From Candidatus Roizmanbacteria bacterium RIFCSPLOWO2_01_FULL_37_16 (lineage in GTDB: Bacteria > Patescibacteriota > Microgenomatia > UBA1406 > GWC2-37-13), in NCBI GenBank assembly GCA_001789695.1, contig MGAI01000035.1, positions 2,274 through 66,273 of the forward strand: 64,000 nt of DNA, written 5' to 3'. Positions within the stretch are counted from its first letter, which is position 1; each line of letters opens with the position of its first letter. This document shows, piece after piece, positions 2,869-53,972 of the stretch. The position numbers and the translations under genes are program-made. The notes under the pieces were generated by a model. The model was not told the origin of the DNA, did not search any database, and saw nothing but the letters and a program-made list of their open reading frames with translations.

Positions 2869-3641
2869 GTAATAAGCCTCATATTAGCATTAAACCGGAC
2901 GTTTTGTTTCAATTTTTAGGTTTTCCCGTAACTAATTCATATCTAACGGCGATCATAGTCATCGCCATTTTTTTCTTAATCGCAAAATACTATAGAGCAA
3001 ATATAGAAAAAGTCAAAAGATCCAATTTCTTTTATTTACTTCAATTCATCTTTAGAGGAATATATAATTTTTTTCGCAATACAATAGGCGATAAAATTGT
3101 CATGCTTTTTCCTATTTTAGGTTCGCTTTTTATTTATATTCTGCTTTTGAATTGGTTTGGTTTGTTGCCTGGTGTAGGTAGCATTCTGATTCGAATTATA
3201 AAGGCAAACCACGTTCCCGCGGTTGGCGCGATCGAACCGGAATATGAATTTGTTCCACTTCTTCGGGCTAATACGACCGATTTAAATACTACACTGGCTT
3301 TGGCGATTATAGCCTTTTTTTCTATCCAATATTTCGGAATGAAAGAACTGGGAATTTCCGCTTATCTTAAGAAATTCTTTAACTTTTCCAATCCGATTTC
3401 GTTTTTTGTTGGATTTTTGGAAGTTGTCTCTGAATTCTCTAAAGTTTTATCTTTTTCATTTCGATTATTTGGCAATATCTTTGCGGGGGAAGTACTACTG
3501 ACGATAATTGCCTTTTTAATGCCGGTATTAGCTTCTTTCCCCTTTCTTTTGCTGGAAACTTTTGTTGGTTTAATACAAGCTTTGGTGTTTTCAACTTTGA
3601 CCGCGGTTTTTATTTTAAACGCAACAGCCAAAAGCCATTAA
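2865..3641 (+). CDS. atpB: F0F1 ATP synthase subunit a
   Basis: Multi-TM protein with the conserved subunit-a C-terminal motif (SFSFRLFGNIFAGEVLL, essential Arg). Position in the atp operon fits. Confidence 0.9.
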   Translation: MSNKPHISIKPDVLFQFLGFPVTNSYLTAIIVIAIFFLIAKYYRANIEKVKRSNFFYLLQFIFRGIYNFFRNTIGDKIVMLFPILGSLFIYILLLNWFGLLPGVGSILIRIIKANHVPAVGAIEPEYEFVPLLRANTTDLNTTLALAIIAFFSIQYFGMKELGISAYLKKFFNFSNPISFFVGFLEVVSEFSKVLSFSFRLFGNIFAGEVLLTIIAFLMPVLASFPFLLLETFVGLIQALVFSTLTAVFILNATAKSH

Positions 3642-4846: not shown

Positions 4847-6326
4847 ATATCTAGAAAAGATAGAGAGAGAGCTGCAATCTGGCAAAACAAAAATAAAAGC
4901 AGAAGAGACCGGCACTGTGATAGAAGTAAAAGACGGTGTGGTATTTTTAGAAGGTTTGGACGAGGTTAGCTTTGGAGAGTTGATTCAATTTGAGCAAAAA
5001 CAGACAGGTTATGTCATCGACATTAGCGAATACAGCGTAGGCGCTATTATTTTAGGCGATTATTTATCAATCAAGACGGGAAACAAAGCATCAGCTTTGG
5101 GATTTACTTTATCAATCCCTGTTTCAAACGACCTTTTGGGAAGAGTTTTTGATCCCCTAATCAATCCTTTAGATGAACAAAAGAAAATTGAGACAAAAGA
5201 GTTTTATCCCGTAGAAAAAGTCGCCCCAAACGTGGTGAAACGAATACCTGTTAACCTGCCAATTCAAACAGGCATAAAAGCTATTGATGCTTTGATTCCC
5301 ATAGGTAGAGGACAAAGAGAGCTTATAATTGGCGACAGAGGAACAGGCAAGACGACCCTGGCTGTTGATACAATCCTAAATCAAAAAAACGAAAATGTGA
5401 TCTGTATTTATTGTGCAATAGGACAAAAGAACTCAAAGGTGGCATCGCTTATTGATCTTTTTAAAATACAAAACGTAATGGATTATACGATCGTGGTGAA
5501 TGCTTCCTCGTCTGATTCGGCGGCAATGCAGTATCTGGCACCGTATTCAGCCTGCGCTATCGGTGAATATTTTATGGATAAGGGTAAAGATGTTTTAATT
5601 ATTTATGACGATTTAACCAAACACGCCTGGGCACATAGGGAAATTTCTCTGATCTTACGAAGACCGGCAGGACGCGAGGCATACCCGGGTGATATTTTTT
5701 ATCTTCACTCAAGACTCTTGGAGAGATCATGTCGACTAAATAAGAAGTATGGGGGTGGGTCCTTGACCGCGCTTCCTATTATCGAAACTTTGGAGGGAGA
5801 TCTTTCTTCCTATATTCCCACCAACGTCATCTCGATTACAGACGGACAGATATATTTAGAAACAGATCTTTTTAATGCCGGTATCAGGCCAGCTATAAAC
5901 GTAGGTTTATCGGTGTCACGGGTTGGAGGAAATGCTCAAACTAAAGCCATTAAGTCTGTTTCCGGCAGGTTAAAACTAGATTTAGCTCAATATCGTGAGA
6001 TGGCAGCCTTTTCCCAATTTGAATCAGAGTTAGACGAGGAAACGAAAAAATTTTTAAATAGAGGTGCCCGAATCACACAAGTTCTTAAACAAAAGAAAAA
6101 TAATCCATACTCTTTGGCCCAAGAAGTAGCAATTATTTGGACGGCAGCTAATGGTTATCTTGATGATCTTTCTCTTGAGAGAGTTGAAAATTTTGAGGCC
6201 AAACTGCTGGCTGATTTAAATACCAGAGGAAGACCGCTTTTGGCAAGAATCAACAAGAATAAAATATTAGAGAAAAAAGACGAGGAGGTGTTGAAAAGAT
6301 TCGTAAGAGAGAATCTTAGTATCTAG
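4830..6326 (+). CDS. atpA: F0F1 ATP synthase subunit alpha
   Basis: Walker A GDRGTGKT and typical alpha motifs (IYDDLTKHA, PGREAYPGDIFYLHSRLLER). Confidence 0.95.
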   Translation: MKLIDEYLEKIERELQSGKTKIKAEETGTVIEVKDGVVFLEGLDEVSFGELIQFEQKQTGYVIDISEYSVGAIILGDYLSIKTGNKASALGFTLSIPVSNDLLGRVFDPLINPLDEQKKIETKEFYPVEKVAPNVVKRIPVNLPIQTGIKAIDALIPIGRGQRELIIGDRGTGKTTLAVDTILNQKNENVICIYCAIGQKNSKVASLIDLFKIQNVMDYTIVVNASSSDSAAMQYLAPYSACAIGEYFMDKGKDVLIIYDDLTKHAWAHREISLILRRPAGREAYPGDIFYLHSRLLERSCRLNKKYGGGSLTALPIIETLEGDLSSYIPTNVISITDGQIYLETDLFNAGIRPAINVGLSVSRVGGNAQTKAIKSVSGRLKLDLAQYREMAAFSQFESELDEETKKFLNRGARITQVLKQKKNNPYSLAQEVAIIWTAANGYLDDLSLERVENFEAKLLADLNTRGRPLLARINKNKILEKKDEEVLKRFVRENLSI

Positions 6327-6405
6327 TATAAAGTATTTAGTATTACGTATAAAAATATTTAATAAAAATACTAGATACTTGATACTTTATACCTAATACT
6401 TTTTG
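6315..6405. repeat. Heptamer-built palindrome (AGTATNN)n ... (NNATACT)n followed by a T-run
   Basis: Left arm cttAGTATctAGTATaaAGTATttAGTATta (includes the atpA TAG stop). Right arm aATACTagATACTtgATACTttATACctaATACT, then TTTTT. The arms are imperfectly complementary, with a 12-bp core containing one mismatch flanked by two 5-bp blocks. Confidence 0.6.
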
Positions 6406-8785: not shown

Positions 8786-9193
8786 ATGTCGACTATTCAT
8801 CTTAAAATTATTACACCGCAAAAAATTACCCTGGAAGCCGATGTATTATCGGTAACTGTGCCATCCGCAGAGGGAGAAATAACAATTCTACCGCACCACA
8901 TAAACCTATTTAGTCTTCTCTACGAAGGAATTATCAAGATAAAACCTGAAAAATATTTAGCTATTGGTGGCGGATATGTAGAAACTGATGGAGATGAAGT
9001 CAATATTTTAGTCTCTCGAGCTTATGGTCAAGACAAGATAGATGCCAAAGCGACAGAAAGGGCAATCGAAGAAGCAAAGCAGATTTTAGAGAAAACAAAA
9101 AATGAATCAGAGCGTCAAAAGGCTATATTAACTCTCCGCCGGTCGTTGATCGACATGAAATTAATCAAAAGACGCAAAAGACAATCTCCATAA
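8786..9193 (+). CDS. atpC: F0F1 ATP synthase subunit epsilon
   Basis: MSTIHLKIITPQK...VTVPSAEGEITILPHH is a typical epsilon N-terminus. Start moved to the ATG at 8786 because the 11 upstream codons of the ORF track lie inside the repeat element. Confidence 0.85.
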   Translation: MSTIHLKIITPQKITLEADVLSVTVPSAEGEITILPHHINLFSLLYEGIIKIKPEKYLAIGGGYVETDGDEVNILVSRAYGQDKIDAKATERAIEEAKQILEKTKNESERQKAILTLRRSLIDMKLIKRRKRQSP

Positions 9194-9218
9194 TGAGCTA
9201 TAATAGCAAATAGTATCT

Positions 9219-9295
9219 AGTATTTAGTATAAAGTATCCAGTATCAAGAAGCTTTCTTTTTTTTAGATTAAATACTTTATACTTAATACTTTTTT
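9219..9295 (+). terminator. Long AT hairpin plus T-run after atpC (heptamer-palindrome family)
   Basis: AGTATTTAGTATAAAGTAT (9219-9237) pairs with ATACTTTATACTTAATACT (9272-9290), 18 of 19 bp, followed by T5-6. The loop holds an inner hairpin AAGAA-gct-TTCTT. Confidence 0.55.
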
Positions 9296-9302
9296 AAGCA
9301 AT

Positions 9303-11348
9303 ATGGCTTTAATTATTGTTGAATCACCCACAAAAGCGAGAACGTTTAACCGTATCATCAAGGATAATAAGAACTTTGTCTTTGCGACGATGGGTCATAT
9401 CCGTGATTTGCCCCCCAAAAGAATCTCTATTGATTATAAGAATAAATTCAAACCGACCTATGAAATTATTGCCAAAAAAAGAAAAGTAGTAGCCGAACTA
9501 AAAAAACTTGCCAAGGAAAATAAGGAGATTATTCTGGCAACGGATCCTGATCGAGAAGGAGAATCAATAGCCTACCATGCTGCTTATTTGACCGGCCATA
9601 TCAAAGAAAAATGGCCCAACGCCGAAATAATTAAGAACGGTCTAAACCTAAATCTGCAAAGAATAATATTTCACGAAATCACGCCTAGAGCGCTTAAGGA
9701 AGCTCTTGAAAAGCCTGAAAAGTTACGTTTGGATCTTGTTTATGCACAGCAGGCACGAAGGATTCTCGATAGGATAGTAGGGTACGAACTCTCACCGCTT
9801 TTATGGAAAAAAATAGGGAAAAACTGGCTATCAGCAGGACGCGTGCAGACTGTCGTTTTAAGATTAATCGTCGAGAGAGAAAAGGAAATAAAGAATTTTA
9901 AAATAGAAGATTACTATCAGATTTTCGGTTTTTTTGAAAGGGAAAAAAGGGAAAAAGATGTTGCTATAAAGGCAAAATTAATCAGCAAGGACGATATTCT
10001 CTATGAGCAAAAGTTCAGCCTGAGCCTTTTTGCTGGAGATTACCAGTATTCAAAAACAACCATCAATGGACAGAACGTCGATAAAATCAAAAAAGATTTA
10101 GAAGCAGGTGGGTATGACGTATCCGAAATTAAGGAAGAAATTCAACATAGATACCCGCCGCCACCATTTACAACTTCTTTGCTTTCACAAGACTCATTTT
10201 ATAAATTCGGTTTTTCTTCGAAGATGACAATGAGATTAGCGCAGGATCTTTACGAACGGGGATTGATAACTTACCACCGTACGGATTCCTTCAATCTTTC
10301 AACGCAGTTTGTTTTTAAAGCCAAGGATTATATTTTAGAAAACTTCGGCAAAGATTATGCTTTGGACAAGCCAAGGGGATATAAAACCAGGTCTAAAATG
10401 GCTCAAGAAGCTCACGAAGCCATCCGGCCGACTAAATTAGATCCTAGCGCAGCCGAATCTGGAAAAGATCAAAAAATAACAATAAATCACAAAAAACTTT
10501 ATAAACTGATATTTAATCGGGCTATTGCCACTCAGATGAAAGAGGCGTCGATAAAGCATCACACCATAACAATTCTCAGTAGTAAAGCTTATCTTTTCGA
10601 ATCGGAACTTCAATTGGTGATATTTGACGGATTTTTAAAAATTCTCAACCCGGAATTTGTCAAGAGAAATAAAGTTCTACCTGATATTAAAAAAGATGAT
10701 TCATTGCGATTAATCTCGCTTGACACTGTCGAAAACCAAACCAAACCGCCTCCTCGTTATAATGAAGCAACTCTTATCAAAACACTGGAAGAAAAAGGCA
10801 TTGGCAGGCCATCGACTTATGCACCGATTATTTCACTGATTCAGGAAAAAAATTATGTAGAAAAAGAAAACAGATATTTTATGCCGACGCGCCTTGGTGA
10901 AACCATATCGGAATATTTGGCTAAATCCTTTCCTAATATTTTCGATCTTAACTTCACTGCCAAAATGGAGGAGGAATTGGACCTGGTTGCCGATGGAAAA
11001 ATAGATACAGTTCGCTTATTGCAGGAGTTTAATTCTCCTTTCCAAAAAGACCTCTCACAAAAAAAGAAAGATGATACAAAAATTGACGTCGAAGAGGAGA
11101 TAAAAGAGATCTGTCCAAGTTGTGGTTCGCCGTTAGTGGTAAGATATTCAAAGTTTGGAAAATTCATAGGTTGTAGCAATTATCCAAAATGTAAATTCAC
11201 CAAACCATATCTTAAATTTATTCCAAATAAGATTTGTCCCGAAGACGGAGGAAGAGTAGTATTGAAATTTTCTAAAAAAAGAAAACGATTTTTCGGTTGC
11301 GAGAATTATCCAAAATGCACTTGGTCGGCGTGGAAGTTAACTAAATAG
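9303..11348 (+). CDS. topA: DNA topoisomerase I
   Basis: TOPRIM N-terminus (LIIVESPTKA, DPDREGE), the active-site region (ITYHRTDS), and two C-terminal C4 zinc ribbons (CPSCGSPL...CSNYPKC; CPEDGG...CENYPKC). Confidence 0.9.
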   Translation: MALIIVESPTKARTFNRIIKDNKNFVFATMGHIRDLPPKRISIDYKNKFKPTYEIIAKKRKVVAELKKLAKENKEIILATDPDREGESIAYHAAYLTGHIKEKWPNAEIIKNGLNLNLQRIIFHEITPRALKEALEKPEKLRLDLVYAQQARRILDRIVGYELSPLLWKKIGKNWLSAGRVQTVVLRLIVEREKEIKNFKIEDYYQIFGFFEREKREKDVAIKAKLISKDDILYEQKFSLSLFAGDYQYSKTTINGQNVDKIKKDLEAGGYDVSEIKEEIQHRYPPPPFTTSLLSQDSFYKFGFSSKMTMRLAQDLYERGLITYHRTDSFNLSTQFVFKAKDYILENFGKDYALDKPRGYKTRSKMAQEAHEAIRPTKLDPSAAESGKDQKITINHKKLYKLIFNRAIATQMKEASIKHHTITILSSKAYLFESELQLVIFDGFLKILNPEFVKRNKVLPDIKKDDSLRLISLDTVENQTKPPPRYNEATLIKTLEEKGIGRPSTYAPIISLIQEKNYVEKENRYFMPTRLGETISEYLAKSFPNIFDLNFTAKMEEELDLVADGKIDTVRLLQEFNSPFQKDLSQKKKDDTKIDVEEEIKEICPSCGSPLVVRYSKFGKFIGCSNYPKCKFTKPYLKFIPNKICPEDGGRVVLKFSKKRKRFFGCENYPKCTWSAWKLTK

Positions 11349-11378
11349 TATCTAGTATTAAGTATTTAGTATTTAGTA
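11346..11378. repeat. Left arm of heptamer palindrome flanking the four-helix-bundle gene
   Basis: TAGTATCTAGTATTAAGTATTTAGTATTTAGTA. It begins with the topA TAG stop and ends in the ATG of the next ORF. Confidence 0.55.
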
Positions 11379-11752
11379 TGAATACAAAAATCAGATCTTT
11401 TACCCAATTAAATGCATGGAAAAAAGCACATAGGTTTGTGCTTTTCATATATAAAATAACCAAAACATTTCCAAAAGAAGAATTATACGGTTTAGTCAAC
11501 CAGATGAGAAGAGCTGCTGTTTCTATCACGAGTAATATTGCAGAGGGGTTTTATAGAAGAACATCAGAGGATAAAAATCATTTTTATTACACTTCATTAA
11601 CATCGCTAGCAGAAATTCAGAATCAGTTAATTATTTCAAGAGATTTAAATTATATTTCTAATACTGTATTTCAAGAAGCTGCTAAATATTCTATCGAAGT
11701 TCAAAAGTTAATAAATGGTCTTATTAAATCTTCTAGTACGAAGAGTTTTTAA
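11378..11752 (+). CDS. Four-helix-bundle protein of the '23S rRNA intervening-sequence protein' family
   Basis: 124 aa with the family hallmarks recognisable by eye (F..L.AWKKAH.F...IYKITK.FPKEE.YGL..QMRRAAVSI.SNIAEG). Confidence 0.75.
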   Translation: MNTKIRSFTQLNAWKKAHRFVLFIYKITKTFPKEELYGLVNQMRRAAVSITSNIAEGFYRRTSEDKNHFYYTSLTSLAEIQNQLIISRDLNYISNTVFQEAAKYSIEVQKLINGLIKSSSTKSF

Positions 11753-11753
11753 A

Positions 11754-11784
11754 ACTAGATACTTTATACTTAATACTAAATACT
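11754..11784. repeat. Right arm of heptamer palindrome flanking the four-helix-bundle gene
   Basis: ACTAGATACTTTATACTTAATACTAAATACT. About 80% complementary to the left arm, with a shared core ATACTTAATACTA. Confidence 0.55.
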
Positions 11785-11791
11785 TATTTCT

Positions 11792-12373
11792 ATGATTGGA
11801 AAAATTAAAGGAGAACTTGTTGAAATTGATGGAAATCTGGGACTGATTATGACATCGGGAGGGGTTTTTTATCAGGTCTATCTTACGCCGTCGATTTTAA
11901 AAAATTATAAAAAAAAGATCGAAGTTGAAGTCTATACCTATTTACAGGTAAGAGAAGATGCTCTGGTTTTATTTGGCTTTGAGAGCAAGGCAGAATATGA
12001 TTTTTTTAAATTACTCCTGGGAGTTTCTGGCGTAGGCCCAAAAACAGCCTTTTCCATCATCTCTTTTTCTCGGATAGACGACATAACTGAGGCAGTAAAA
12101 AAAAATAGTACGGATTATTTTAGTAGAATTCCTGGATTAGGTAAAAAGACTGCGCTTAAGATAATTTTAGAGCTTTCAGAGAAACTTGATGCCGAGTTTA
12201 AATTGGAAAAGATGTACTTATCAGAAGATGATAAAACCGTTGTCGATGCTTTGGTTTCATTAGGTTTTAAATCAAATGAAGCTAAAAAAATTCTTGGCCA
12301 ACTACCTAATAAAATCTCCATCGAGAATAAAATCAAAGAGGCTATCAGATTGGCAACCAATCCTAAAAATTAA
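11792..12373 (+). CDS. ruvA: Holliday junction helicase subunit RuvA
   Basis: MIGKIKGELVE... N-terminal OB domain and HhH motifs (LLGVSGVGPKTA, IPGLGKKTA). Confidence 0.9.
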   Translation: MIGKIKGELVEIDGNLGLIMTSGGVFYQVYLTPSILKNYKKKIEVEVYTYLQVREDALVLFGFESKAEYDFFKLLLGVSGVGPKTAFSIISFSRIDDITEAVKKNSTDYFSRIPGLGKKTALKIILELSEKLDAEFKLEKMYLSEDDKTVVDALVSLGFKSNEAKKILGQLPNKISIENKIKEAIRLATNPKN

Positions 12374-12389
12374 TATATATTTTTAACCT

Positions 12390-13397
12390 ATGAAAGAGCA
12401 AAAAGTCTGGCGGGGTGAATCAGATTTAAGACCGCAGAAACTTTCCGATTATATCGGCCACAAAAACGTCGTAAAGACGCTTCGCTTATTTATCGATGCA
12501 GTAAAAAACCGTGGCGCATCAACAGAGCATTTACTTCTTTACGGGCCGCCTGGGATCGGTAAAACTACCTTAGCCTATATCATAGCACGGGAACTTGGTG
12601 GCGAAATTAAAATTACCTCAGGTGCAGCTATTACTAAAACAGGGGATTTGGCTGCAATTTTAACCAACTTAAATAAAAACGACGTTTTTTTTATTGATGA
12701 AATCCATAGGCTACCTAAACCAGTTGAGGAGCTTTTGTATCCTGTGATGGAAGATTTCTCGCTTGATCTAATAATTGGCAAAGGTCCTGCGGCAAGAACC
12801 GTTCGTTTGCCTATAGCTAGTATCACACTTGTTGGCGCAACCACAAAACTAGCTTTGCTTTCGGCGCCACTAAGAGACAGGTTTGGATTGATATTGAGAA
12901 TTGATTATTATTCCCATGATGAGATTGTTGACATTGTCAAGCGATCAAGCCAAATACTAAAATTGCCAATCACAGACAATGCAGCTTCTGAGATTGCTAA
13001 AAGATCAAGAAGGATTCCCCGAGTAGCCAACAGAATATTAAAACGAGCCAGAGACATGTTTGAGGTAGATAAACACAAAATAATTGACGATTTGATGCTG
13101 AAGCAGCTTTTTGCTCTTTTGGAGATTGACGAACGTGGACTAATGTCGGTTGATAGAAAGTACCTCCTTTTATTAATAAAAAAATTCCAAAATGCTCCAG
13201 TTGGATTAGACACTATTGCCTTGTCTTTATCAGAAGATAAAAGGACAATAGAGGAGTTTATTGAACCATATCTGATGCAGATTGGTTTTATTAAAAAAAC
13301 TGCCCGGGGAAGAGTAGTTACTGGTCAGGCTTTTGAGCATCTGGGACTTAAATTGTCATTGTCTTCACCAGCTATGAGACAGGAGAAACTGGTATAA
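12390..13397 (+). CDS. ruvB: Holliday junction helicase subunit RuvB
   Basis: LRPQKLSDYIGH, Walker A GPPGIGKTT, Walker B FIDEIHRL. Confidence 0.95.
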   Translation: MKEQKVWRGESDLRPQKLSDYIGHKNVVKTLRLFIDAVKNRGASTEHLLLYGPPGIGKTTLAYIIARELGGEIKITSGAAITKTGDLAAILTNLNKNDVFFIDEIHRLPKPVEELLYPVMEDFSLDLIIGKGPAARTVRLPIASITLVGATTKLALLSAPLRDRFGLILRIDYYSHDEIVDIVKRSSQILKLPITDNAASEIAKRSRRIPRVANRILKRARDMFEVDKHKIIDDLMLKQLFALLEIDERGLMSVDRKYLLLLIKKFQNAPVGLDTIALSLSEDKRTIEEFIEPYLMQIGFIKKTARGRVVTGQAFEHLGLKLSLSSPAMRQEKLV

Positions 13398-13506: not shown

Positions 13507-13752
13507 ATGAACTACGTATACGTTTTGAAATCATCAACAAGAATTTATATTGGTAGAACGAGTAAGCTTAAGGAGAGAATAAATGAACATTTTAAAAGAA
13601 AAACATGGACTACTAGACGATTTAAAAAGTTAGAATTAATTTTTTATGAGGCATTTAAAGATAAAATAGATAGTATAAGAAGAGAGAGATATTTTAAAAC
13701 ATCAAAAGGTAAGTCGTCATTAAAACAGATAATAAGAGAGTCTTTAAAATAG
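13507..13752 (+). CDS. Small GIY-YIG nuclease-family protein (YhbQ/COG2827-like, 81 aa)
   Basis: The N-terminus YVYVLKSSTRIYIGRTSKLKERINEH carries the GIY...YIG motifs and conserved Arg; RRERYFK supplies the conserved Glu. The stop codon TAG overlaps nt 1 of the tRNA. Confidence 0.8.
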   Translation: MNYVYVLKSSTRIYIGRTSKLKERINEHFKRKTWTTRRFKKLELIFYEAFKDKIDSIRRERYFKTSKGKSSLKQIIRESLK

Positions 13753-13839
13753 CCTGGGTGGCGGAATTGGTATACGCGCAGGACTTAAAATCCTGTAGCT
13801 GCATAAGCTGTGAGGGTTCGAGTCCCTCCTCAGGCACCA
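13752..13839 (+). tRNA. tRNA-Leu(UAA), class II, CCA encoded
   Basis: Cloverleaf folded by hand: acceptor GCCTGGG/CTCAGGC, anticodon arm CAGGA-CTTAAAA-TCCTG, long variable arm (AGCT-gcata-AGCT), T arm GAGGG-TTCGAGT-CCCTC, then A-CCA. Confidence 0.9.
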
Positions 13840-13999: not shown

Positions 14000-14113
14000 T
14001 TGAGTAATTTGAACACTCTTATCAAGGCACTCGGTGAAAACAGAGCCAAAAGGGACGAGAGCCTGTCGCACCATACAACATTGGGAATCGGAGGGAAGGC
14101 AGATGTATTTTTC
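14000..14113 (+). pseudogene. murB: N-terminal stub of murB (UDP-N-acetylenolpyruvoylglucosamine reductase)
   Basis: LIKALGENRAKRDESLSHHTTLGIGGKADVFF matches the conserved MurB N-terminus (..L.EN.pL..HTT..IGGpAD.f.). Similarity stops after ~38 codons, and the frame runs on into the fucosidase ORF. Confidence 0.55.
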
Positions 14114-14152
14114 AAAAGAGGTATTAAAATAATTACAAAAAAAACTTTTTAT

Positions 14153-15154
14153 ATGTCCCTATCTTCCAAAAGAAATATTACCCTTAGCGAAAATAAATTG
14201 ACATGGTGGAAAAAAGCGAAATTTGGAATGTTTATTCATTGGGGACTTTATTCTTATTTAGGGGGAATCTGGAAGAGTAAAAAAACAAACTATTACAGTG
14301 AGTGGATAATGAACACTTTAGATATTCCCGATTCCGAATATTCAAAAGTTGCTGATAAATTTAACCCTATAAAATTTGATCCCTATAAATGGGTTAAAAC
14401 AGCAAAATTAGGAGGTATGAAATATCTCATTTTTACGGCAAAACATCATGAAGGATTTTCTATGTTTGATTCCAAATTAACTGACTACAATATAGTTAAG
14501 GCATCTCCCTACAAACACGACGTCGTATCAGAACTATCCCAAGCCTGTAAAAAGGAAGGGTTAAAATTTGGTGTTTATTATTCTTTATTAGATTGGCATC
14601 GGACTAAATCTCCCGGCACTTTTGGTTCACTTTTTGAGAAATCAGATAAATATTTTAAGTTTGTTAAGGGTCAAATTAGAGAACTTTTGACAAACTACGG
14701 AGATATATCAGTATTATTTTTTGACGGAGACTGGATGCTTACTTGGAATAAAAACAAAGGTAGAGAACTGGAAAAATTAATTAGAAAATTACAACCAAAT
14801 ATAATCATTAACGACAGAATTGGTAAAAGGCCTTATACATACTACGTTCCGATTATTAAATCCATATTCTTGCAAAAACCAAACATCGGCGACTACTCTA
14901 CTATCGAACAGGCTGTTCCTTTTTTCAAACAAAGTTTTAACTGGGAAAGTAATATAACTATAAATGATTCTTGGGGTTATAAAAAATTTGATAACAACTG
15001 GAAATCTGCATCAAAGATAATTTCAATTTATGAAAAAGCATTACGGTTTAAAGGCAATCTGCTTTTAAATATTGGACCTGATGGAGATGGTAATATTCCC
15101 GTTTCCTCGATTAAAATTCTAAAAGAGATAGGAAAAAGGATGTCAGAGAGTTAA
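14153..15154 (+). CDS. Alpha-L-fucosidase (GH29-like)
   Basis: WWKKAKFGMFIHWGLYS, KYLIFTAKHHEGFSMFDS and VLFFDGDW are GH29 signatures. Start taken at the Met at 14153, after the murB stub. Confidence 0.8.
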   Translation: MSLSSKRNITLSENKLTWWKKAKFGMFIHWGLYSYLGGIWKSKKTNYYSEWIMNTLDIPDSEYSKVADKFNPIKFDPYKWVKTAKLGGMKYLIFTAKHHEGFSMFDSKLTDYNIVKASPYKHDVVSELSQACKKEGLKFGVYYSLLDWHRTKSPGTFGSLFEKSDKYFKFVKGQIRELLTNYGDISVLFFDGDWMLTWNKNKGRELEKLIRKLQPNIIINDRIGKRPYTYYVPIIKSIFLQKPNIGDYSTIEQAVPFFKQSFNWESNITINDSWGYKKFDNNWKSASKIISIYEKALRFKGNLLLNIGPDGDGNIPVSSIKILKEIGKRMSES

Positions 15155-37752: not shown

Positions 37753-38278
37753 CAAATCGAAATGCACTTTAACAATTAAAGGTAGGTCAAAATAACTAAT
37801 AGAAAAGATGGGAGAAATAAAGCTAATGGTGGATGCCTAGGTAACTTAAGCCGAAGAAGGACGCGTGAATGAGCGCGATAACAACGGTGAGTCCTCTATC
37901 AGACGATATCAACCGTTGGTTTCCGAATGGGGCAACCCGATCCTGCGTAAGTAGGATGATACTACGCTTCGCGTAGTAAGGAGACCTAATGAACTGAAAC
38001 ATCTCAGTAACTAGAGGAAAAGAAAACAATAGTGATTTCGTTAGTAGCGGCGAGCGAAAGCGAAATAGCCCAAAGTCTGGAGTAATCCAGGCAGTTGCAG
38101 GGCCCGCCACAACAGGATCAGTTAAGAATAGAAGAATATCTTGGAAAAGATAGCCATAGAGGGTGATAGCCCTGTATTCTAAATTCGAGACTGCTTGGGT
38201 GGGTACCTAAGTACCACGAGTCACGGCAAACCTTGTGGGAATCTGGGTCGGTCACGATCCAAGGCTAAATACTTAAGT

Positions 38279-38319
<41 letters not shown>

Positions 38320-38395
38320 TCCCCCGAAAGGGGAGTGAAATAGAACCTGAAATCATTAGCTAACAAACAGACAGAGCTTGTGCGTAGCACAAGGC

Positions 38396-38495
38396 AGTTT
38401 AGAAAGTTCTTAAAGTGAAAAGTTTGTAAAGATATGTTGTATTAAAGCAATTATCTTTATTAAATTTAAAAACCTTATAACTTTGTAACTTCCTC
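38396..38495 (+). other. AT-rich intervening-sequence-like block in the 23S helix-25 region
   Basis: About 100 nt of very low GC lie between the hairpin CTTGTGCgtaGCACAAGG (38377-38394) and the conserved ...GTCGTGCCTATTGAAGAATGAGCCAGCGAG. The E. coli sequence has no counterpart. It contains a stem TAAAGATA/TATCTTTA. Confidence 0.5.
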
Positions 38496-39161
38496 GTGCT
38501 GCGCGCGAGTAATGTCGTGCCTATTGAAGAATGAGCCAGCGAGTCTCCGATAAGAACTTCGTTTAATCCCTTTTTGGGAAAAGGCAAAGCGAAAGCGAGT
38601 CTTAATAGGGCGAATTTTAGTTCTATCGAAGGACCCGAAACTGGGTGAGCTAACCATGAACAGGGTGAACTCCGCCTACAGGCGGAGGGAGGCCCGAACC
38701 CGTTGTCGGTGAAATGGCATGGGAAGATTTGTGGTTAGGGGTAATATGCCTATCGAACCCAGAGATAGCTGGTTCTCCCCGAAATATATTTTGGTATAGC
38801 CCTCGACTTTATTTATGAAGGGGTAGAGCTACTGGATGGTTATGAGAGCGTAAGCGATCACAATCAACCAAACTCCAAATACTTTGTAAAAATAGCGAGG
38901 AGTCAGTCTCGCCGGGATAAGCCGGTGTAGGCAAAAGAGAAACATCTCAGATTTCCGTCTAAGGTTCCTAAATGATTTTTAAGTGGTTAAGGCCGTTGGT
39001 TGTCCAACACAGTAGGAAGGTTGGCTCAGAAGCAGCCATCCTTTAAAGAGTGCGTAACAGCTCACCTAAATATTCTACGCCAATGGCGTAGGGATAATCT
39101 GCGCCGAAAATGATCGGAGCTAAAAATCTGCCGAAGACGAAAATCTTGTGCTTCGCACAAG

Positions 39162-39235
39162 GGTTTAAGGTTAATTACTTTTTGGTCATAATTGACTAAA
39201 AATAATCACAACTTTACTCTTGTGTGAAGCACAAG
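39162..39235 (+). other. Intervening-sequence-like block in the 23S helix-45 region (AT-rich spacer plus duplicated hairpin)
   Basis: CTTGTGCTTCGCACAAG (39145-39161) and CTTGTGTGAAGCACAAG (39219-39235) flank a 57-nt AT-rich spacer, just before the conserved GGTAGGGGAGCG. The two 17-mers are mutually complementary in 16 of 17 positions plus one G-U. Confidence 0.5.
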
Positions 39236-40434
39236 GTGGTAGGGGAGCGCCCGCCAGGCAGTGAAGCAAAATTGCAAGATTTTGTGGAGCGTGGCGGGGT
39301 GAGAATGCTGGCATAAGTAGTGTATCTCCCGATGAAAACTCGGGATGCCGAAAATCCAAGGTTTCCTCAGCAATGTCAATCAACTGAGGGTTAGTCGGAT
39401 CTAAGGGAGTCCTGTTTGGTACTTCCGATGTTCAAACAGTTAATATTCTGTTACTTTAACACTCTTGTTATTACTTAAAAATTGACGAAATTTGATACTC
39501 TGTCCCTTCTATATGGGGGGTTAAGTTATAAACTGTATCGTAAGATGCAGCAAGTAACAAATACAACCCTGACGTAATGTCGGGGGAGATAGAGGACTTA
39601 AGTTCCCAAGAAAAGATTTTTAAGGAAAGAGTGTTGAATCCGTACCGATAACCGACACAGGTGGATTGGTGTAGAACACTAAGGCATACGGGTAATGATG
39701 ATTCAAGGAACTCGGCAAAAAAGCTGGACGTAAGCTTTGCGATATGTCCTGTCCCGCCTCTGGCGGGATTGCAACAAATGTTTGTCAACCGACTGTTTAG
39801 CAAAAACACAGGTTCCTGCTAACCCTAAAAGGGGATGTATAGGAGCTGAAACCTGTCCAGTACTGGTAAGTTAATCATTTCGGGTGATTCCGACGAGCAA
39901 TCTTCGGAAAAGCTTGAGATGCAAGCTCCAGTGAACGACAGCTCTAACCCTGAGAGTTCTAAGGTAGCGTAACCCCTTGCCGGGTAAGTTCCGGCCCGCA
40001 TGAAAGGTCTAACGAGTTGACAACTGTCTTGAATCACTGCCCGACGAATTTGAAATGGCTGTGAAGATGCGGCCTACCTACACCTGGACAAGAAGACCCC
40101 GGGAGCTTAACTGAAACTAGGCATTGGTGGGAAGAAATAAATTGTTGAGCGTAGGAGGGAGTCCCGAGTTTATCGGGACAACGATGAAACACCTCTCTCT
40201 TGTTTTTTTTCACCTTATCCCGCTTAGCGGGAGACAGTACTTGGTGGTCAGTTTAACTGGGGCGGTTTCCTCCAAAAGAGTAACGGAGGAGCGCAAAGGT
40301 CAGCTAGCTGCGCATAGAAATCGCAGTGTTAGTGCAAACGCATAAGCTGGCTTAACTGTGAGGCATACAAGCCGATCAGATGCGAAAGCAGGCGTTAGTG
40401 ATCCTCGATCCCGATGTGATATCGGGACGGGCTT

Positions 40435-40467
<33 letters not shown>

Positions 40468-40571
40468 GGTCGCCTCCGAGAGTTCATATCGACGAGGCGG
40501 TTCGGCACCTCGATGTCGGCTCACCGCATCCTGGGGCTGAAGTCGGTCCCAATGGTCGGGCTGTTCGCCCG

Positions 40572-40618
<47 letters not shown>

Positions 40619-40926
40619 ACTCTATCCGGTGTAGGCGCATGGAATTTTGAGGAGGGACTCCTACAGTACGAGAGGACCTAGGATGTGGAGATCCCTGGTG
40701 TACCGGTTATCTTATAAGGGTAATGCCGGGTAGCTATATCTCTATTCGATAAACACTGAATGCATATCAAGTGTGAAGCGAGCTCCAAGATAAGAATTCC
40801 TTTTAGCTTTCCTGAAGATTACAGGATTAATAGACGTCAGGTGTAAGTTCTGTAAAGAATTTAGCCAAGACGTACTAAGTAGCAATCTCCCATCTTTTTT
40901 ATTAGTTAAAATAGAAATAATCAAAC

Positions 40927-53716: not shown

Positions 53717-53718
53717 AA

Positions 53719-53781
53719 AGTATTAAGTATTAAATATCTAGTATTTTAATTTTATGCTTAGTATTTTATACTGGATACTAG
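53719..53781. repeat. Heptamer (AGTATNN/ATACT) repeat block in the rpmI-rplT spacer
   Basis: AAGTATTAAGTATTAAATATCTAGTATT...CTTAGTATTTTATACTGGATACTAG. Same unit composition as 6315-6400, 9211-9290 and 11346-11784, but with weaker arm complementarity. Confidence 0.4.
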
Positions 53782-53972
53782 ACTCCTAGCATTTTTTTTA
53801 TTTTCTTTTTATAATTCCCTTTTACCTGTTTTAAAAGTTTCAATCTTCTAATCTGCCTCTTAGATTTTTTTGATCTAAGATGTCGTAAATAATGAGATCT
53901 ATGTAAGAGTTTTCCTTTTTTAGTGATTTTAAAACGCTTGGCTGCTGATTTGTGAGTTTTTTGCTTAGGCAT
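53778..53972 (-). CDS. rpmI: 50S ribosomal protein L35
   Basis: MPKQKTHKSAAKRFKITKKGKLLHR is the canonical L35 N-terminus. Confidence 0.85.
   Translation of the reverse strand: MPKQKTHKSAAKRFKITKKGKLLHRSHYLRHLRSKKSKRQIRRLKLLKQVKGNYKKKIKKMLGV

Follow-up and report, generated by a model that had tools for sequence, protein, structure and literature searches.

A gene of the 23S intervening-sequence protein family forms a heptamer-array cassette between topA and ruvA in a Roizmanbacteria genome

Introduction

A classical intervening sequence (IVS) of 23S rRNA replaces the tip of helix 9, 25 or 45, and its excision leaves the ribosome unharmed. Some IVSs carry an open reading frame (ORF) of the '23S IVS protein' or 'four helix bundle protein' family, which has thousands of members and, to our knowledge, no known function; its members are usually annotated as isolated hypothetical genes. 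In this paper we study one such gene in a stretch of 64,000 nucleotides, hereafter the window, from Candidatus Roizmanbacteria bacterium RIFCSPLOWO2_01_FULL_37_16 (assembly GCA_001789695.1, contig MGAI01000035.1, positions 2,274 to 66,273 of the forward strand). The gene lies between topA and ruvA and is bounded by two inverted arrays of a 7-nt repeat, and we compare this cassette with the described systems that it most resembles. We show that, in most of the copies sampled and in several phyla, a very common gene family annotated as 'hypothetical' is packaged as a hairpin cassette of heptamers.

The helix-45 IVS of Coxiella burnetii ends in a 28-bp terminal stem (Warrier et al. 2016, PMC4990558). 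This stem is cut by RNase III in vitro, the ends having been mapped by rapid amplification of cDNA ends, and the 5' cut falls at the start of the first of three tandem GACAGAT heptamers which, with a degenerate one, lie directly upstream of the S23p ATG; the copy number of the heptamer varies by strain (PMC4990558). Among the rRNA insertions of Patescibacteria, a few have been found to carry 23S_rRNA_IVP ORFs (PMC11270868).

Heptameric repeats are also known from intergenic DNA. In Xanthomonas 186 GGGAATC arrays have been counted, with 70 convergent pairs in X. campestris (Rehm et al. 2015, PMC4692102), and further repeats have been catalogued in Nostoc and, as TAACTGA, in Beggiatoaceae (PMC4692102, PMC4679880). 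The repeats of Xanthomonas, the short tandemly repeated repetitive sequences of cyanobacteria and those of Beggiatoaceae are like the arrays described below in that they are tandem 7-nt units in spacers, often form convergent pairs and often end by a start codon. They differ in that most have no ORF between them, and they have been treated as quadruplex-forming or regulatory sequences, not connected with PF05635. We found no paper making a general link between PF05635 and heptamer arrays in the full-text literature searched, which does not exclude papers beyond that library.

Results

The cassette between topA and ruvA

The features of the cassette and of its two host genes are as follows.

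9303..11348, + strand: topA, the upstream host gene, with its stop inside the first repeat unit
11346..11381, + strand: 5' arm, five tandem AGTATNN units at 11347-11381 (AGTATCT, AGTATTA, AGTATTT, AGTATTT, AGTATGA)
11378..11752, + strand: ORF of 124 aa, four-helix-bundle / 23S_rRNA_IVP family (PF05635, TIGR02436)
11750..11784, + strand: 3' arm, one degenerate and four NNATACT units, overlapping the ORF stop TAA (11750-11752)
11792..12373, + strand: ruvA, the downstream host gene, starting 7 nt past the end of the 3' arm

That is, the cassette is a PF05635 gene together with two inverted 7-nt arrays, which adjoin the start and stop codons of the gene and in part provide them. An earlier note on this DNA, made from the letters alone, had placed a gene of the 23S IVS protein family here, outside the rRNA, between arms about 80% complementary, with the topA stop and the ORF's ATG built from repeat units, and our analysis agrees on each count. 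The stop codon TAG of topA (11346-11348) and the ATG (11378-11380) both read inside repeat units of the 5' arm. The 3' arm, as its reverse complement, reads AGTATTT, AGTATTA, AGTATAA, AGTATCT, AGTTTTA, and the best inverted pair of arms measures 36 nt at 83% complementarity, 366 nt apart. The three-unit pattern AGTATNNAGTATNNAGTAT, with at most one mismatch allowed, occurs 18 times in the window and not once in 100 shuffles.

The ORF matches PF05635 (23S_rRNA_IVP) with E 2.3e-36 and 124.7 bits, against a cutoff of 33.8, over positions 2-106 of the 106 in the profile, and TIGR02436 ('four helix bundle protein') with E 3e-34 and 117.5 bits, against a cutoff of 24. The nearest solved structure is 2GSC, which is XCC0516 of Xanthomonas campestris (E 4.8e-18). 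The conserved motif of XCC0516 homologues, R-x3-S-x3-N-x2-E (PMC3936711), is present as R45, S49, N53 and E56, which are invariant or nearly so in our alignment of homologues and align to residues of 2GSC. By homology to 2GSC, the window protein would be a pentameric four-helix bundle. The ORF is under purifying selection, with dN/dS of about 0.1 against two related copies (L107 and L006; L numbers denote the loci that we compared).

The window is A+T-rich DNA (about 35% G+C) of the Patescibacteria, or candidate phyla radiation. The ORF begins 29 nt downstream of topA and ends 39 nt upstream of ruvA, within the co-directional run atpA-atpG-atpD-atpC-topA-ORF-ruvA-ruvB. It does not have the location of an IVS, since it is not within the rRNA: the 23S gene stands at 37806-40897, 26 kb away. 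No second copy of a PF05635-family gene was found in the 64-kb window. The identical ORF and neighbourhood occur also in GCA_001789895.1 and in several groundwater metagenomes.

The layout across the gene family

Protein similarity was the sole criterion by which we chose 80 genome loci (53-65% identity), which cover many lineages of Patescibacteria and a few other phyla; together with the loci fetched earlier, these make 86 distinct copies, mostly from Patescibacteria. Arms and ORF travel together, and the gene family conserves this layout as a hallmark, in true 23S IVSs as well. In the closest homologues (72-76% identity, L006-L011), for example, AGTAT arms touch the ATG and the stop in three other gene neighbourhoods, between glycosyltransferase or ABC-transporter genes.

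Over the 86 copies, the self-match at lag 7 of the 42 nt beside the ORF is 0.55 upstream and 0.58 downstream, compared with about 0.26 at other lags. The best 24-nt complementarity is 19.1 for true upstream and downstream pairs, versus 15.8 for pairs permuted between loci. Arrays stand on both sides of the ORF at 67 loci. At 50 of these (75%; for permuted pairs, 19%; p 7e-22) the upstream and downstream units are reverse complements of each other, with at most one mismatch. The units themselves fall into 17 families (AGTATNN, GTAGTAN, TGAATTA, CGTATTT, CGAATCA, AGAATGT, GCGTAAC, GAGAATG and others). Checking other members of the family for flanking palindromes, as the earlier note had advised, was thus borne out at some 80 genome loci, where the arms co-vary. 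The array containing G comes first in 67 of the 86 copies and the order is reversed in 1.

The cassette is co-directional with both neighbours in 61 of 73 cases; the gaps have medians of 32 and 31 nt, and the arms thus essentially fill the whole spacer. Flanks past the periodicity threshold amount to 35-38% for the PF05635 gene and 6-8% for the other genes of the same loci. Tandem arrays in the sampled loci number 224 with a period of 7, and at most 27 with any other period.

Certain spacers hold cassettes recurrently in distant lineages: atpA-atpG (L031, L057), upstream of ruvA (L018), upstream of folA (L012, L014, L023) and upstream of dinB (L015, L019, L086). The first of these, atpA-atpG, holds a solo hairpin in the window. 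Locus L068 (JAQUPS010000019.1, 553-4934) has four cassette copies within 5 kb, alternating with pilin-like genes; there the cassette stop overlaps the next ATG (ATGA), and the 3' heptamer array is seemingly translated as the leader of a downstream prepilin-like ORF (MKVKKIRNTRYEIRDTNPGFTLLE). In L006, L007 and L009 a conserved promoter-like motif, TTGACG-N17-T(T/A)AAGT, lies about 30-60 nt upstream of the ORF, overlapping the start of the 5' array and preceded by a conserved TTATAAGCGGTTGAC segment; the motif is absent from the window copy.

Outside Patescibacteria, we found the layout at 11 of 13 further sites read. The cyanobacterial plasmid arrays are TCAGGAG/CTCCTGA in Nostoc, Scytonema and Trichormus, GGAGATA in a Picosynechococcus plasmid, where the cassette lies between cas10 and cmr3, and GGGTGTA/CTACACC in Calothrix, with similar ones in Geminocystis, Anabaena sp. 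90 and Stanieria. Riemerella (Bacteroidota) has GGTTYAA/TTRAACC. The Xanthomonas orthologues of XCC0516 (L102-L104) lie between accB and accC and are flanked by exactly GGGAATC-type arrays, one arm reading GGGAATC, GGGAGTG, GAGAATC, GGGAATC and the other being its mirror-ordered complement (26/30). The two exceptions have direct arrays. In Pseudanabaena (L100, plasmid NZ_CP112875.1, 45865-47021) fifteen AAAAGCT units stand upstream and ten AAAAGCC units downstream, between cas6 and cas4, and a Gemmatirosa plasmid (L113) has direct octamer arrays on both sides. To judge from their sequences, the ORFs of L100 and L113 look as if they stood in the middle of one long tandem array.

The operon spacers that hold cassettes at these sites are cas10-cmr3, cas6-cas4, upstream of cas4 (L099, L100, L109) and accB-accC (L102-L104). 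PF05635 genes within cas loci have been flagged as possible cas-associated genes (PMC3936711). Our loci suggest that they are cassettes lodged between operon genes, and such lodging within tight cas operons may explain the earlier reports of cas association.

Comparison with true 23S rRNA IVSs

An ORF-bearing IVS inside a 23S gene is found in Azospirillum lipoferum (L111, AZO_p2 14092-15030), where the Rfam large-subunit rRNA model is matched from 969 to 1449 across the stretch holding the ORF and arms, about 470 nt. Its arms consist of five GGACAGA/GGACGGA units, and the ATG falls within the second unit. Its geometry is nearly that of the window cassette: arms of 36 nt, 86% complementary and 397 nt apart, against 36 nt, 83% and 366 nt. 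The arm stem is predicted in both the minimum free energy (MFE) and the centroid folds (z -9.3). Among the loci fetched before L111, blastn of the window 23S gene found no rRNA-embedded copy.

The window cassette is thus like the ORF-bearing 23S IVSs (Coxiella S23p, Leptospira, L111) in its PF05635 ORF of about 120-130 aa and in the tandem heptamers that make up its inverted repeats (about 28-36 nt), the last unit holding or adjoining the ATG. As in an IVS, terminal inverted repeats form an extended, predicted stem and heptamers lie beside the ORF start. It is unlike them in its host site, which is the topA-ruvA spacer of an mRNA rather than helix 9, 25 or 45, and in its unit, which is AGTATNN rather than GACAGAT (Coxiella) or GGACAGA (L111). 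Since the cassette is built like an ORF-bearing 23S IVS but lies outside 23S rRNA, we file it as a variant of the IVS. The earlier note had placed the gene in the loop position of a hairpin element, an arrangement like that of ORF-bearing rRNA IVSs, and had linked the family to such an element rather than to rRNA as such; our results support this interpretation.

Insertion and turnover among relatives

The cassette is still present at topA-ruvA in relatives with 80% and 94% protein identity, with all AGTAT cores intact and with different spacers between the cores. In relatives with invariant cores the synonymous sites of the ORF are saturated (pS 0.77). In relatives that have the topA-ruvA order and a RuvA 67-76% identical, there is neither a cassette nor an AGTAT hairpin at this site, and the cargo-free version for which the earlier note had suggested a comparison of relatives is therefore not there. 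This comparison comes from a metagenome scan with RuvA that gave 4 loci, enough to establish an empty site and too few to date the insertion. In one of them, L094, the stop of topA and the ATG of ruvA overlap, and atpC and topA are 7 nt apart. The window topA, which terminates within the first repeat unit, lacks a C-terminal tail found in all the relatives compared. Since these relatives have no element at topA-ruvA, we conclude that arms and ORF are an insertion and arrived together. No target-site duplication is evident at the junctions against L094, L106 and L107, no systematic search having been made.

A solo AGTAT hairpin occupies the ruvA-ruvB spacer of L094 (3572-3650) and L106 (3521-3555), where the window has a gap of 16 nt. 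In both, ruvA ends in ...S I * (AGT ATC TAG) from the first hairpin unit, as atpA does in the window. In the atpC-topA spacer, where the window has an AGTAT hairpin, the solo hairpin of L106 (278-365) is built from another unit, TAACATN/ATGTTAC, and its G/C polarity is reversed. Thus, on sequence comparison, the spacers of this one conserved operon gain and lose both the ORF-bearing and the ORF-less form.

Three further observations concern these loci. The arrays contain TAG in the frames that we read, and so cap any ORF they have invaded. The contig of the 94%-identical relative, L107, ends in directly oriented AGTAT units just past the stop (2297-2316), which probably reflects either a second element or a break of the assembly within the repeats. 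In the 3' tails of topA in L092 (about 2700-2800) and L094 (about 2960-3000) we find a palindromic repeat, GTCATTCCCGCGAAGGCGGGAATCCAG, reading VIPAKAGIQ in frame; this is seemingly a palindromic element of another kind that has entered the coding sequence.

ORF-less hairpins and other features of the window

The window contains the following hairpins without an ORF, the first three lying in spacers and the last two in the 23S gene.

6316..6401, no strand assigned: AGTATNN/NNATACT hairpin in the atpA-atpG spacer, fold z -4.0 (+) and -4.9 (-)
9211..9292, no strand assigned: AGTATNN/NNATACT hairpin in the atpC-topA spacer, fold z -3.2 / -4.8
53718..53790, no strand assigned: weaker, degenerate AGTATNN/NNATACT hairpin between minus-strand genes, z -2.3 (+) and -0.8 (-)
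38381-38499: hairpin insertion in 23S, 119 nt, E. coli position ~543 (helix 25), z -7
39154-39226: hairpin insertion in 23S, 73 nt, E. coli position ~1174 (helix 45), z -11

The earlier note had reported cargo-free copies of the palindrome in other spacers, and 23S insertions of this genome that lack an ORF; both are present as listed. The solo AGTAT hairpins are predicted to fold stably on either strand. The last codons and stop of atpA (AGT ATC TAG, 6318-6326) come from the first unit of the hairpin at 6316-6401. By analogy with ORF-less IVSs, we read the hairpins at 6316-6401 and 9211-9292 as cassette-type elements without cargo. The two 23S insertions occupy classical IVS sites and are predicted to fold very stably. 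The helix-25 insert seemingly contains irregular short repeats of the type AAAGTTN, inverted.

We scanned positions 9000-12500 for promoter-like and terminator-like sequences and found no excess of either, with 0 terminator-like sites. The arms are accordingly not read as intrinsic terminators, their stems being long and A+T-rich. We also rejected a reading of the arrays as tandem -10 boxes giving leaderless transcripts: TAGTAT fits TAnnnT, whereas the units GCGTAAC, CGTATTT and GAGAATG do not, and the promoter scan counters it as well. Among the 50 window ORFs of 100 aa or more, a Shine-Dalgarno-like 4-mer at -20..-4 is present in only 2, and its absence is therefore not a special trait of the cassette ORF; the source organism appears to do without Shine-Dalgarno-led initiation. 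The PADLOC defence models gave no hit. Elsewhere in the window, an 81-aa GIY-YIG ORF (13507-13752) ends exactly at the start of a tRNA gene (13752-13836).

Discussion

We consider it fairly probable that the window element is an IVS-type cassette that sits in an operon spacer instead of an rRNA helix, that its arms pair in the transcript, and that RNase III cuts the resulting stem. The cassette would be transcribed within the atp-topA-ruvAB message from the operon promoter. The G-containing 5' array would then pair with the C-containing 3' array, looping the ORF off on an imperfect stem of about 35 bp; folding of 11330-11800 predicts such a long-range stem between the arms in both the MFE and the centroid structure (z -2.1). 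RNase III, by analogy with the IVS, would cut this stem, and the cut would both release the RNA of the ORF, placing the AUG at its new 5' end or close to it, and separate the flanking host messages, much as an IVS is removed from 23S rRNA. With the Coxiella case, the RNase III step proposed for the cassette is well precedented. A stem of tandem units would also tolerate changes of register: slippage that adds or removes a unit would still leave pairing, and when we shift the arms by whole units the cores indeed pair equally well in every register. Such tolerance would account for the freedom of unit order and of spacers next to a constant 5-nt core, and the variable copy number fits it as well.

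A number of results weigh against this explanation. Position by position, the cores of the two arms pair at 24 of 25 nucleotides, and the spacers at 5 of 10, which is the chance level for spacers rich in T and A. When the order of units in the 3' arm is permuted at 49 homologous loci, the observed match is 18.2 and the null expectation 18.7; with no signal of mirror order, we have dropped the idea of a base-by-base palindrome. The figure of 83% complementarity is what two inverted arrays of one heptamer give. The earlier note had named this outcome as one that would count against it, and to the letter it is what we find, the 5-nt core carrying the pairing; the inverted arrangement is nevertheless beyond chance. 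The non-random part, far beyond chance, is the inverted arrangement together with the co-variation of unit type, and not mirror symmetry base by base. Mismatches in the arms are G:U in 33 cases and A:C in 24 (p 0.29), and since G:U is not significantly commoner there is no RNA-specific signature. The direct arrays of Pseudanabaena and Gemmatirosa cannot form a stem. Heptamer arrays are abundant away from PF05635 genes (0.25 per kb), and only 29% of these solo arrays match the local cassette unit, though they are closer to it than expected (p 4e-5). In the 64-kb window we found no signature of RNase III. For Coxiella, the ORF is reported as decaying and apparently untranslated in vivo (PMC4990558), in contrast to the window ORF with its purifying selection. 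Finally, a function in pairing alone does not account for a period that is always 7.

Because the constant period, the fixed polarity and the direct-array exceptions are left unexplained by a stem, we keep in view models in which a protein reads the arrays. In one of these the arrays are binding sites, in DNA or RNA, with one unit per 7 nt, for the encoded pentameric protein or for a host factor; their purpose would be autoregulation or propagation of the element, and the ORF-less arrays would be further sites or non-autonomous partners. We regard this as unlikely. It would suit a 7-nt period that is strictly kept while the sequence changes (224 arrays against at most 27), a conserved core with free spacers and no mirrored order, a fixed polarity (67 of 86 against 1), and exceptions that still have arrays on both sides. 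The family is also homologous to Avd, a nucleic-acid-binding accessory protein (by matches below cutoff; PMC10053308), and the closeness of solo arrays to the local cassette unit noted above points the same way. However, the flanking units differ greatly between proteins that are about 55-65% identical, several unit types can occur in one genome (L032, L068), and 71% of solo arrays differ from the local cassette unit. Moreover, RNase III cutting of such a stem has been shown experimentally in Coxiella, whereas the protein binding is hypothetical.

A broader version of this idea, which strikes us as quite unlikely, is that PF05635 proteins are the trans-acting partner of widespread heptamer-array elements: they would recognise, maintain or spread 7-nt arrays, with ORF cassettes as the autonomous members and ORF-less arrays as their dependants. 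The class may take in 23S IVSs, the GGGAATC pairs of Xanthomonas, the heptanucleotide arrays of cyanobacteria and the spacer hairpins of Patescibacteria.

The same comings and goings could instead reflect a transposon or a MITE (miniature inverted-repeat transposable element), that is, mobile DNA bounded by heptamer-array inverted repeats, whose ORF-bearing copy is autonomous, whose ORF-less copies are derivatives, and whose RNA stem is a by-product. Arms and ORF do occur together at unrelated sites and are missing from orthologous ones, solo AGTAT hairpins lie in different spacers of the same operon (in ruvA-ruvB of L094 and L106, with none there in the window), L068 has its four copies within 5 kb, and the IVS ORF was proposed as a mobility component by Ralph and McClelland in 1993, as cited in PMC4990558. 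Yet the 124-aa protein has no transposase, recombinase or nuclease domain, the ends of the arms are not sharply defined, no target-site duplication was seen at the junctions read, where no systematic search was made, and recombination between arrays could give mobility equally well. All told, we judge this improbable. It is highly improbable, in turn, that the arrays are slippage-prone simple repeats that accumulate by mutation in spacers, where small genes tolerate or collect them, without a function. Heptamer repeats are over-represented in many bacteria and polymerase slippage has been proposed as the cause (PMC4692102), arrays are frequent away from the gene, and copy number differs among Coxiella strains (PMC4990558); but slippage would not account for a roughly five-fold enrichment of arrays at the flanks of PF05635 genes over other genes of the same loci, for two arms that co-vary in unit type, for a fixed polarity, or for AGTAT cores that are invariant where synonymous sites are saturated.

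Two further known systems bear comparison. Like repetitive extragenic palindromes (REP), bacterial interspersed mosaic elements (BIME) and MITEs, the window cassette is a short palindromic spacer element between co-directional genes; it would be read as part of the operon transcript, and some relatives have it while others lack it. It differs from them in that its arms are tandem heptamers rather than a unique palindrome and in that one class has a conserved ORF in the loop; in the window and the fetched loci we saw no RAYT or transposase and, without a systematic search, no target duplication. The other system is Avd, the accessory protein of diversity-generating retroelements (DGRs), which shares the homologous four-helix-bundle fold and is likewise a small, pentamer-forming protein with suspected nucleic-acid binding. 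We do not class the window ORF as such a DGR protein: its scores are below the cutoffs of the Avd models (NF033474/PF22296, 31.1 versus 80 and 29.7 versus 40), and its neighbours are topA and ruvA, between which there is neither a reverse transcriptase nor a template or variable repeat.

Reading the element as an IVS-type cassette makes the rRNA IVS one of several landing sites for a general cassette. It gives a simple explanation for the presence of the gene within essential operons (accB-accC, cmr2-cmr3, topA-ruvA) without visible disruption, and it ties the PF05635 gene to the unexplained excess of heptameric repeats in Xanthomonas and cyanobacteria. Tractable systems for testing it exist in the accBC operon of Xanthomonas and in E. 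coli with or without rnc. If PF05635 proteins should prove to act in trans on such arrays, the cassettes would represent a new type of mobile or self-maintaining element without a known recombinase, and would account for the surplus of heptameric repeats that has long been noted in the genomes of bacteria.

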